Below are positions 23,571 to 26,266 of a stretch of DNA of 29,685 nucleotides, one piece after another. The notes under the pieces are model-generated. The model did not search any database. It saw only the letters and a program-made list of their open reading frames with translations, and was not told the origin of the DNA. This DNA is from a virus: the UHGV virus genome UHGV-0134783; one strand, written 5' to 3'. The stretch's first letter is position 1. Each line of letters starts with the position of its first letter. Position numbers and translations under genes: made by a program.

Positions 23571-24434
23571 ATGCTCTCTCTACAACGATCCTTCGAGAGG
23601 GCCTCCCAAACAGCCGCCGAGCTGCCCCGCATACCCCAGCTAGAACCCCTCTACCGCAACCTGGACATGCACATCCACAAAGGGGATTTGGTGATGATTG
23701 CGGGGCGCTCCGGCAGCCAAAAATCCGGGCTAGCAATGTTCATCACAGCAATGCTCAACCAGCCCGCCCTCTACATATCAGGGGACATGACACCCTGGGA
23801 GGCCTCCACACGAATCATCTCCCTCAACACCCAACACACCACCCAGCAAATACAACAAAACATCGACGACTACGGGCCAGAATACTATCGAGACAGCATC
23901 CACCACGGCGGACACATCACATTCTCATTCCAGTCGCCCATCACATGGACAGACATCACCATGGAATTGCAAGCCTACATGGAAATGTGGAACACCTTCC
24001 CACCACTCATTGTTATCGACAACCTGATGGACATTCAAGACTGCGAATCAGACTACCAGGCCCAGCAAGAAGCCATGCAATGGATCACAGCATTGGGTAG
24101 GGATACTGGCTCCACTATTATTGTCACACACCACGCAACCGACAAAACCGGAACCGACATCGAACACCCGCCAGCACGCAGGGAAATCAAAAACGGGCTC
24201 TCCGAAAAACCACAACTCATCCTCGGAGTCTCATTGTATGGTGGCGAGGATAATGGCAACGGGCTCACTATAACGGCAGAGGCTCGCATCGCCGTGCTCA
24301 AACAGCGCACCGGCAAATCCAGCCCCGACGGCACCCGATACGAGCGGCTACGAGCCTACCCCGAATACACATTCTTCGGACCCCTCGTCGAAAAACAGCC
24401 ATGGAACATGACCACAACACACAAAGGACTATGA
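23571..24434 (+). CDS. DnaB-like replicative helicase (C-terminal RecA-fold ATPase domain only)
   Basis: Walker A GDLVMIAGRSGSQKSG. Walker B LIVIDNLMD. 287 aa. Confidence 0.8.
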   Translation: MLSLQRSFERASQTAAELPRIPQLEPLYRNLDMHIHKGDLVMIAGRSGSQKSGLAMFITAMLNQPALYISGDMTPWEASTRIISLNTQHTTQQIQQNIDDYGPEYYRDSIHHGGHITFSFQSPITWTDITMELQAYMEMWNTFPPLIVIDNLMDIQDCESDYQAQQEAMQWITALGRDTGSTIIVTHHATDKTGTDIEHPPARREIKNGLSEKPQLILGVSLYGGEDNGNGLTITAEARIAVLKQRTGKSSPDGTRYERLRAYPEYTFFGPLVEKQPWNMTTTHKGL

Positions 24435-24790
24435 TGGCTTCACAGCAGGCACGCAACCGGCGGGCCGGAGCCGAATGGGAAACAAGACTCCTCCACCAGC
24501 TACGCAACACCGGTTACGACATCGAACGCCTCCACCTCAACGGTCAAGAGGACGAGGGAGACCTGATCCTCAAAACCGGCAACAAAACCTATGTGATCGA
24601 AGCCAAAGCCGGACAGCCACACCTAGCCCAATTCGTGAAACAAGCCAGCCGGGAGGCACGCAACTACGAAACACACCGAAACAAACAAAACAATTCCACC
24701 ATCGGACTCGTAGTGATGAAACAGCGCAACAAGCCATGGAGCGAAGCCTATGTGGTATCAACCCTCAACGAGCTCCTCCCACACCTCTGA
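24431..24790 (+). CDS. Holliday-junction resolvase-like PD-(D/E)XK nuclease (Hjc-like)
   Basis: ATGA overlap. GAEWETRLL..L...GYDIERL....EDEGDLILK...KTYVIEAKAG matches the E-D-ExK pattern. Confidence 0.7.
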   Translation: MMASQQARNRRAGAEWETRLLHQLRNTGYDIERLHLNGQEDEGDLILKTGNKTYVIEAKAGQPHLAQFVKQASREARNYETHRNKQNNSTIGLVVMKQRNKPWSEAYVVSTLNELLPHL

Positions 24791-25151
24791 CACCTGCCGC
24801 CTCCTCGACACCTACCGGATACGGTACAATCCGTCCCGAAACGAGCAACACATCCTCTGCCCGTTCCACGACGACCACCAGCCCTCCATGAGCATCAACC
24901 TCGACAAGGGCGTCTGGTACTGCCACACATGCGGTGTCGGAGGCGGACTCGCCAAACTACAACAACGATTAGAAGAAGAAAACCCGAATGTACGACAGCA
25001 TACGCCCATACAACATTGCGGAACGCCGCCGAATCCAGAAAGCCTCGGCCCTCTACGAAACCCACCTCGAAAACATACTCGACCTCCTCTCAGCAAGAGG
25101 CATCAGCGAAGAAACAGCCCGCTACCACCACCTTGGATACATCGACAATGA
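24750..25151 (+). CDS. DNA primase N-terminal zinc-binding (CHC2) module; ORF continues out of frame over primase core
   Basis: CPFHDDHQPSMSINLDKGVWYCHTCGVGG. GGAGCGAAG SD. After about residue 80 the ORF becomes Pro/Arg-rich junk that overlaps the next gene. Confidence 0.6.
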   Translation: MWYQPSTSSSHTSDTCRLLDTYRIRYNPSRNEQHILCPFHDDHQPSMSINLDKGVWYCHTCGVGGGLAKLQQRLEEENPNVRQHTPIQHCGTPPNPESLGPLRNPPRKHTRPPLSKRHQRRNSPLPPPWIHRQ

Positions 25152-25659
25152 CCCCATACCCGGCCACGAAAACTACAACCAGTGCATCACCATCCCATAC
25201 ATGTACCCCGTTTGGGGTGGCCCAGCCGAAATACGAAAAATGCGTTTCCGCTGCTCACTCCCGCACGACTGCAAAACCCACAACCACCCCAAATACCTAA
25301 CCCCGGCAGGAGACACAGGCTCCATCTACAACATGGCCGCCATGGCCAACCCGCAAACAGACATGCATATTTGCGAAGGCGAATTCGACTCCATGATCCT
25401 CGAACAATGCGGATGGTCGGCCGTAGCACTACCCGGCGCAACCTCGTGGCAAACTTTTTGGACCAAATTCTTCGAAGGCTACGACCACATCTACATATGG
25501 TCCGACCCAGACAAGGCGGGCCACCAGATGGCCCAAACCCTCCAGGCAGCACTCCCCCAAGCCACCCACGTACCCCTCACTGTCGGTGACGTCACAGACA
25601 CCTACCTGCAGGCCGGAAAAACAGGGTTGACACAAGCACTAGACACTGTGCTACAGTAA
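24988..25659 (+). CDS. DNA primase catalytic core (TOPRIM, DnaG-like)
   Basis: ICEGEFDSM and DPDKAG TOPRIM motifs. The frame opens at 24973, one nt out of phase with the zinc-finger ORF. Confidence 0.75.
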   Translation: MYDSIRPYNIAERRRIQKASALYETHLENILDLLSARGISEETARYHHLGYIDNDPIPGHENYNQCITIPYMYPVWGGPAEIRKMRFRCSLPHDCKTHNHPKYLTPAGDTGSIYNMAAMANPQTDMHICEGEFDSMILEQCGWSAVALPGATSWQTFWTKFFEGYDHIYIWSDPDKAGHQMAQTLQAALPQATHVPLTVGDVTDTYLQAGKTGLTQALDTVLQ

Positions 25660-25702
25660 AACACGTCAACAACACGAAACCAGAAAGGTACACTAAAACA
25701 TC

Positions 25703-26266
25703 ATGGATCCCCTCGACACGTGCCCCATCCCCCACCGGCGCAACACCAGCCAGGCAGCCAGGAGGCGTATCCGCCTCGCCATCTGTGCAGAAAAATGGGC
25801 TGATGGTGAAGACCCCACCTACATCATGCACACCTGGGGCACCACCTACGACGGGATGCGATCCATGATCCGCGCCAACCCCGACATTAAACTACCCGAC
25901 GACATGGCCAAACGGTTACACAAAGTATGCCGGGAAGCCTACCCCAAAAACCAGCCCAACAGGCACCGAAGCGGATGGGACCAATACGAGAAAAACTACT
26001 ATACCCACGAAATCCTCTTCCTTGACCAATTCAACATCCCAGCCATAGAAATATTGGACCGGCTAGACGTGTCATGGACAATGTGGAAACAAATCATCAC
26101 CGAAAACCATCTCACACGGCTCCAAGACGAAACCTACAATGCGTGCCACTGGCACTATCTGAAACAGCAACACCCCGACTGGACTGACCAACAAATCACA
26201 CAAGCCCAACACGCCGGGAACAACACCTTCAACCAGTTCATACAAGACGACAGGCCAGCATTGTGA
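25703..26266 (+). CDS. hypothetical protein (basic N-terminus, possible DNA binding)
   Basis: 187 aa. CCAGAAAGGTAC SD context shared with the gene at 19400. Confidence 0.65.
   Translation: MDPLDTCPIPHRRNTSQAARRRIRLAICAEKWADGEDPTYIMHTWGTTYDGMRSMIRANPDIKLPDDMAKRLHKVCREAYPKNQPNRHRSGWDQYEKNYYTHEILFLDQFNIPAIEILDRLDVSWTMWKQIITENHLTRLQDETYNACHWHYLKQQHPDWTDQQITQAQHAGNNTFNQFIQDDRPAL

Follow-up and report, generated by a model that had tools for sequence, protein, structure and literature searches.

The DnaG-type primase of UHGV-0134783, a viral genome of 29,685 nucleotides (this whole stretch of DNA is called the window below), is encoded by two overlapping genes, which are probably translated independently into two polypeptides. 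The upstream gene encodes a zinc-binding domain (ZBD), and the downstream gene encodes the catalytic part of the enzyme in the +1 frame. The phage represented by the window is a Cutibacterium acnes phage (Pahexavirus). For positions 24400-25700, GenBank has 232 matching phage records (80-99% identity), and every one of them is from a Propionibacterium/Cutibacterium phage. The split primase is already known and annotated. Marinelli et al. 2012 list genes 30/31 of P100D as DNA primases (PMC3448167), and most of the 232 records list 'DNA primase (x2)', in agreement with the statement in the earlier note on this DNA that related phages are annotated with two adjacent primase genes.

The features of the primase locus are as follows, where frame 0 is the frame of the zinc-finger open reading frame (ORF).

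24738..24741, plus strand: Shine-Dalgarno sequence GGAG, 8 nt 5' of the ATG of the zinc-finger gene; its duplex with the 3' end of 16S rRNA has -5.6 kcal/mol.
24750..25151, plus strand: zinc-finger (ZBD) primase gene, 133 amino acids, based on the ORF list, Pfam, PDB 1D0Q, codon-phase variation and 60/60 relatives; residues 1-77 are the DnaG-type zinc-binding domain and residues 78-133 are a frame-0 tail across the start of the next gene.
24858..24932, plus strand: CHC2 zinc ribbon core with ligands C37, H40, C58 and C61; CPFH...CHTC aligns to the zinc ribbon of 1D0Q.
24969..24990, plus strand: junction TTAGAAGAAGAAAACCCGAATG, with the frame-0 Leu codon TTA, TAG at 24970-72, the A4 run at 24979-82 and ATG at 24988-90.
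24988..25659, plus strand: catalytic primase gene, 223 amino acids, in the +1 frame; the N-terminal subdomain of the DnaG RNA-polymerase domain plus TOPRIM.
24988..25151, plus strand: 164-nt overlap of the zinc-finger and catalytic genes; +1 is the selected frame, and the amino acids of the frame-0 tail are not conserved.
25363..25620, plus strand: TOPRIM domain (Pfam Toprim_3, residues 126-211), with acidic residues E130, E132 and D134 (CEGEFD) and D173 and D175 (SDPDKAG).

The earlier note had described a zinc-binding ORF from 24750 and, one nucleotide out of phase with it, a TOPRIM ORF starting at ATG 24988. The coordinates, the +1 relation and the two domains were all confirmed. The zinc-finger ORF matches Zn_ribbon_DnaG (PF01807) over residues 19-73 (2.3e-10), and among solved structures its best match is the zinc-binding domain of Bacillus DnaG (PDB 1D0Q, 4e-6). 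The catalytic ORF matches Toprim_2 over residues 128-193 (1.4e-6). The profile of the catalytic family matches the DnaG RNA-polymerase domain (RPD) structures 5VAZ (1.8e-14), 1EQN, 1DD9 and 3B39 as well as T7 gp4 (1NUI), in both subdomains. The five acidic residues of the TOPRIM domain are invariant in an alignment of 10 lineages. The Pfam scan of the catalytic ORF gave no DnaB_bind or other match, and the ORF ends 12 residues past the TOPRIM match. The locus has the CHC2 zinc ribbon of DnaG-type primases, and an RNA-polymerase domain with the TOPRIM fold and the acidic metal ligands (E...DxD), but its ZBD and RPD lie on two ORFs one base out of phase instead of on one polypeptide. The structure matches place the split exactly at the ZBD/RPD boundary of DnaG. 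The +1 frame is shut by the TAG at 24970-24972 and is open from 24973, as had been noted. The A4 run sits within GAAGAAGAAAACCCGAATG. Removal of one A from it was predicted to fuse the two ORFs into a primase of ~300 amino acids, and the deletion in silico indeed generates a 302-amino-acid ORF reading ...LEEETRMYDS....

The window was aligned with 59 relatives from IMG/VR and GenBank, giving 60 C. acnes phage sequences, of which 56 are distinct. Each of the 60 carries an ORF of 133 codons and one of 223 codons (222 in one sequence), both opening with ATG and offset by +1. No gap occurs in the alignment ahead of column 798, which lies far downstream of the junction. The start, the stop, the length and the CHC2 ligands of the zinc-finger ORF are intact in every sequence. 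Only one of the 56 distinct sequences differs at ATG 24988 or its flanks (24980-24996), while the TTA and TAG at the junction vary. Variation at third codon positions follows frame 0 over the zinc ribbon (24822-24911) and frame +1 from about 24972 onwards; therefore both ORFs are maintained. Most polymorphisms in 24988-25151 are synonymous in frame +1 and radical in frame 0.

The split is conserved far beyond C. acnes phages. With tblastn, 1,265 further phage genomes were found at <60% identity, the identity of the catalytic ORF being 31-39%. Their hosts include Mycobacterium (978), Streptomyces (206), Rhodococcus (45) and Gordonia (28), and two primase genes are annotated in nearly all of them. 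In total, the two-gene layout is common to about 1,500 related phage genomes. The closest distant homologues of the in-silico fusion, at 35-41% identity, are without exception catalytic-only proteins with 225-232 amino acids. On each of their contigs an uncalled zinc-finger ORF is present upstream, with the catalytic ORF in +1 and overlaps of 143-191 nt. Fused close relatives were looked for and none was found: proteins at least 35% identical are all 223-232 amino acids long. Single-ORF proteins with ZBD and TOPRIM appear only at 31% identity or below.

The frame relation was compared in 39 loci at 31-41% identity, from Mycobacterium, Gordonia, Rhodococcus and Streptomyces phages and from prophages. 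They include six representative phages, Bxb1, and 28 prophage loci of actinobacteria in GTDB genomes. In 38 of the 39 loci (27 of the 28 prophage loci), the catalytic ORF lies in the +1 frame relative to the zinc-finger ORF. Such conservation across diverged phages indicates that the primase split is ancient. The non-actinobacterial labels of three contigs carrying actinophage-type split loci, Paraburkholderia bengalensis, Thermoplasmatales archaeon MAG and Chitinophagaceae MAG (L097, L113 and L124), are probably due to contamination or mis-binning; the protein of the Paraburkholderia bengalensis-labelled locus is 83% identical to a mycobacteriophage protein.

The exception among the 39 loci is a Pseudonocardia prophage, L114. 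Its zinc-finger ORF spans 1060-1467 and ends with TGA at 1465-67, and its catalytic ORF runs from GTG 1483 in the same frame. The 15-nt spacer carries GGGAG 7 nt before this GTG. The zinc ribbon and the catalytic motif are about 35-40 codons further apart than in the overlapping lineages. L114 thus has an ordinary layout of two genes, where a +1 shift is impossible.

The signals for initiation of the downstream ORF differ among lineages: the window has an invariant ATG without Shine-Dalgarno sequence, most relatives have a strong Shine-Dalgarno sequence and a start-type codon, and some have only AUC, AUA or AUU. In the +1 frame of nearly all relatives, a start-type codon is found 14-33 codons ahead of an invariant Tyr. 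Upstream of these codons, there are Shine-Dalgarno sequences of -9.6 to -16.9 kcal/mol, such as GGAGGTGAnnnTTG. The typical start region is GGAGGTGA-nnn-TTG, and its TGA closes the +1 frame immediately upstream. One alignment column has Leu in 12 loci, encoded by TTG in 12/12; three other loci have ATC there and one has ATG. Elsewhere in the same ORFs, TTG represents 7.5% of Leu codons. The neighbouring column shows GTG in seven loci, ATG in one and TTG in three. Two loci without GTG have ATT at the next codon, and ATA likewise appears at the same or adjacent columns. TTG-type start codons require rare T-ending codons in frame 0 (TTT accounts for 7.8% of Phe codons).

The Pfam ZBD model can be aligned in many relatives as far as profile positions 81-92 of 98, which includes a terminal helix, sFAEAxRIAEEL, located 3' of the catalytic start. 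In the lineages with short spacing, the same nucleotides encode this helix in frame 0 and the catalytic N-terminus LQRLSESQRxYLxEAT in frame +1. Wobble identity in the Cluster-A-like clade is 0.63 over the 12 dual-coded codons, compared with 0.47 in the remainder of the gene. Since the ZBD helix and the catalytic N-terminus share nucleotides, one shift cannot join both, and therefore two translation products cover this stretch. The single-ORF proteins P0006 and P0007 have the helix, the linker and the N-terminal motif in series. In C. acnes phages, frame 0 is without the terminal ZBD helix; it reads ...LEEE and then NPNVRQHTPIQH, and the Pfam alignment of the ZBD ends at profile position 72 of 98. 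The catalytic N-terminus MYDSIRPY was considered as the missing helix and rejected, as the Pfam alignment of in-silico fusions ends at the same profile position (73-74 of 98) and scores no better.

The remainder of the zinc-finger ORF in the window is a Pro/Arg-rich tail of 56 codons, which the earlier note had already pointed out as the unshifted continuation. This tail appears to be the frame-0 read-through of the 5' end of the catalytic gene. By codon resampling, the probability of frame 0 remaining open over the 20 tail codons tested is P=0.97, an expectation which follows from the T-poor strand (the plus strand at the locus has 14-16% T). A conserved functional tail across the whole 164-nt overlap was rejected on the polymorphisms described above. 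All three codon phases are about equally reduced in the overlap, and the extra wobble constraint in the Cluster-A-like clade is limited to the first 12 codons. The tail motifs LPSWGG and GRRVFG are off-frame readings of the conserved FRLGVV and AEEYLxSRG.

The two-polypeptide reading is favoured because there is no conserved slip site, because the start codons of relatives are preceded by strong Shine-Dalgarno sequences, and because of the dual coding and the L114 layout. The invariant ATG of the window, the lack of a downstream RNA structure and the position of the split at the domain boundary point the same way. Translation from ATG 24750 would yield a small zinc-binding-domain protein, and ATG 24988 would yield the catalytic RNA-polymerase/TOPRIM protein. 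Independent initiation at ATG 24988 is the most likely route to the latter. The two proteins would assemble non-covalently, with the ZBD acting in trans, alongside a separate DnaB-like helicase encoded at 23571-24434. In DnaG and T7 primases the zinc-binding domain recognises the template, and the ZBDs of DnaG and of T7 gp4 function in trans when they are isolated.

Several observations weigh against this reading. At ATG 24988 the Shine-Dalgarno pairing is -2.8 kcal/mol, compared with a background median of -3.0. In phage Pirate (95% identical, 43 genes), where the genes were ranked, the catalytic ATG is the 41st of 43. There is no termination-reinitiation coupling at this ATG, and initiation there would have to rely on an A-rich, unstructured leader. 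The TTG and Shine-Dalgarno signals of relatives are partly forced by frame-0 residues (E-E-V, Phe) and are not fully independent. In Bxb1, prophiBWHA-1, and prophages of Segniliparus and Streptomyces, the start column is occupied by AUC, AUA or AUU instead of a canonical start codon. Of 22 lineages, 21 have no frame-0 stop in the 20 codons that follow the ZBD helix, for which synonymous-codon resampling gives a joint P of about 7e-7. Such openness is not predicted by the two-gene model unless a C-terminal tail is needed. For Bxb1, the Hatfull laboratory regards fusion by frameshift or bypass as likely (PMC12646305).

The AUC, AUA or AUU codons stand behind strong Shine-Dalgarno sequences (GGAGGTGA and similar, -10 to -16 kcal/mol), at positions where sister loci have TTG, GTG or ATG, which suggests near-cognate initiation of the catalytic primase gene. 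These sites are in Bxb1 (L155; NC_002656, reverse strand, around 38170-38240), L091 (1108-1125), L099 (around 1490-1515) and L107/L110 (around 1465-1480). The minimum tails after the ZBD helix are 19-27 amino acids across lineages (roughly 25020-25080 in the window), and the non-overlapping L114 likewise retains a tail of 20 amino acids. The stop-free frame 0 suggests that the zinc-finger protein needs a C-terminal extension of some length.

The alternative that survives best is programmed recoding. Some ribosomes would shift +1 (or -2, or hop) near 24973-24990 and produce a fused primase of ~300 amino acids, and the unshifted product would be a zinc-finger-only protein. Such fusion has been proposed in the literature for Bxb1 gp50/51. 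For the window, we consider recoding unlikely. The +1 relation in 38/39 loci counts in its favour, but in L114 the genes are in the same frame with a stop between them. The TOPRIM start without Shine-Dalgarno sequence in the window, and the lack of a canonical start codon before the conserved N-terminal motif in Bxb1 and some relatives, are also consistent with recoding. Frame 0 stays open past the junction, which likewise counts in favour of recoding, but the fusion would lose one of the two dual-coded conserved segments, and in C. acnes phages it neither extends nor improves the Pfam match of the ZBD. In most lineages a purine-rich, Shine-Dalgarno-like sequence just 5' of the junction is comparable to the stimulator of prfB. 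Nevertheless, GAA GAA GAA AAC CCG AAT in the window offers no +1 re-pairing slip site, and the bases variable among C. acnes phages (24974/75 AG->GA and 24978/79 GA->AG) destroy any candidate for one. The equivalent sequences elsewhere (ACAUUUG, AACUAUC, ACCCAUC and others) share no motif.

Neither in GAAGAAGAAAACCCGAAT nor across lineages is there a conserved P-site re-pairing site beside a slow A-site codon. As for stimulators of a +1 frameshift in the window, the upstream Shine-Dalgarno pairing is at background, as given above, and no downstream stimulatory RNA structure was found (fold versus shuffles, z = -0.56). No matched codon pair giving +1 and no structure were found at the junction for a bypass of the T4 gene 60 type, and transcriptional slippage would need a longer run than A4. 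The literature was searched for proteomic data on the primase locus and none was found; the Kampy proteomics paper does not report the locus. A +1 shift or short hop near the purine-rich junction that makes use of no known slippery sequence, conserved across more than 1,500 actinobacteriophage genomes and giving the ZBD-only protein and the fusion in a set ratio, is quite improbable. Of the two possibilities in the earlier note other than an error, conserved +1 recoding or a genuinely two-piece primase, the comparison favours the latter.

Three more specific ideas were rejected. The first, rejected for the window, is bypass induced by a rare UUA. The UUA invoked for Bxb1 sits in the IPY region there. 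In the window, the TTA at 24969 corresponds to CTA, CTC or CTG in many relatives. The second is a prfB-like shift at the frame-0 stop. The stops are at four different alignment columns, that of Bxb1 is about 35-40 codons further downstream, and the fusion would be without the first 50 or so residues of the catalytic domain, which are conserved. The third is the use of the Bxb1 PaqCI-site synthetic-genome result as evidence, which does not discriminate between the models. In our own reading of NC_002656, the lethal Bxb1 change CAG->CCG replaces Gln with Pro in the catalytic frame (RWQVV) and is silent in the zinc-finger frame. No more can be concluded from the result than that the catalytic frame of Bxb1 is functional. 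As a separate observation, the TTA at 24969-24971 of the window is one of 2 TTA among 99 Leu codons of the right arm, and it overlaps the TAG of the +1 frame.

It is very improbable that the zinc-finger ORF is a decaying remnant and that the TOPRIM protein alone is functional. This ORF is left unannotated in some GenBank records (Enochoraptor, vB_CacS_YGG and PAVL21), and the ZBD of C. acnes phages lacks the terminal helix present in relatives. However, the signature of purifying selection in frame 0 is clear, the start codon, length and CHC2 ligands are intact in the 60 sequences, the ORF has its own GGAG ribosome-binding site, and a ZBD ORF is kept across the 39 diverged loci. A sequencing or assembly error in the homopolymer, another option in the earlier note by which the true sequence would be A3 with one in-frame primase, can be practically dismissed, as the deletion of one A does restore a single 302-amino-acid ORF but the 60 independently assembled relatives all have the same length at the junction, in an exact-pattern scan of IMG/VR 104 contigs matched the A4 junction and not one matched the A3 or A5 version, no A3 run or single in-frame primase was seen among the relatives, and the identical +1 split is present in phages sharing only 31-41% identity.

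The primase of the window is most similar to the actinobacteriophage split primases of Bxb1 gp50/gp51 and of the Cluster A type. Both halves are homologous, the identity of the catalytic ORF is 31-39%, the split is at the same domain boundary, and the +1 catalytic ORF overlaps the tail of the zinc-finger ORF. In contrast to their GGAGGTGA plus TTG or ATC, the ATG of the window is almost without Shine-Dalgarno sequence. The ZBD of the window, unlike that of the Cluster A type, has no terminal helix, so two conserved segments are not dual-coded. The catalytic protein of the window also has four extra N-terminal residues.

The T7 gene 4 primase-helicase, with its 63-kDa and 56-kDa forms, likewise combines a DnaG-type zinc ribbon with a TOPRIM RNA-polymerase domain (1NUI). 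Its catalytic form without ZBD arises from an internal start in a longer ORF, and the ZBD can serve neighbouring subunits in trans. However, both T7 forms are read in one frame and the long form carries its ZBD covalently, whereas the ZBD of the window is never in the catalytic frame. The T7 primase is fused to the helicase, while the helicase of the window is a separate gene. Bacterial DnaG has the same two N-terminal modules in the same order, and the phage primase is split at the flexible linker between ZBD and RPD. In DnaG, both modules belong to a single polypeptide, which also has a C-terminal DnaB-binding domain; the phage catalytic ORF has no such domain.

The +1 frameshift of prfB (RF2) resembles the split primase in that the downstream ORF is +1 and that, in many relatives, a Shine-Dalgarno-like sequence is present shortly 5' of the junction. 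The split primase has no CUU-UGA-type slip or stall site, and its frame-0 stops are 37-113 codons downstream at different alignment columns. The Shine-Dalgarno spacing in relatives, about 6 nt to the start codon, fits initiation, while the spacing in prfB is 3 nt. The window has no Shine-Dalgarno sequence at the junction at all.

The neighbouring gene on the 5' side is listed here.

24434..24790, plus strand: upstream Holliday-junction resolvase gene, whose homologue is annotated in phages Pirate and Enochoraptor; it shows its own frame signature over 24702-24790.

The 3' end of the resolvase gene and the start of the zinc-finger gene overlap by 41 nt (24750-24790) in different frames, and the variability there tracks the resolvase frame. 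The gene directly 3' of the primase (25703-26266) matches Pfam DUF7188 end to end (6e-121). The plus strand is A/C-rich and T-poor over the entire window (1-29685; T 16%, G 20%, C 34%). Because of this T-poor strand, long open alternative frames are present in all three phases of the right-arm genes, for example at 24929-25300 and 25182-25589, and they are spurious.

Annotators should leave the split as two genes and should not correct it as a frameshift. The zinc-finger gene is missing from several GenBank records, and the GenBank start of Bxb1 gp50 (MYKG) is about 60 codons too far downstream. The gene numbering 50/51 in PMC12646305 appears to be opposite to that of GenBank. RefSeq annotates Bxb1 gp49 (NC_002656, 36960-37514) as 'phosphofructokinase' with a note of DNA primase similarity. 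Reading its sequence shows neither, and this annotation looks unreliable, as judged by reading the sequence without a database scan.

The L114 layout, the conservation of start codons and Shine-Dalgarno sequences, and the dual coding of the ZBD helix bear on the question of frameshift or bypass in Bxb1 gp50/51, which was under discussion in 2025. If the primase is indeed made as two polypeptides, a natural DnaG-type primase with a separate ZBD polypeptide would provide a ready-made system for trans-acting template recognition, which to our knowledge has been studied so far only with artificially separated domains.

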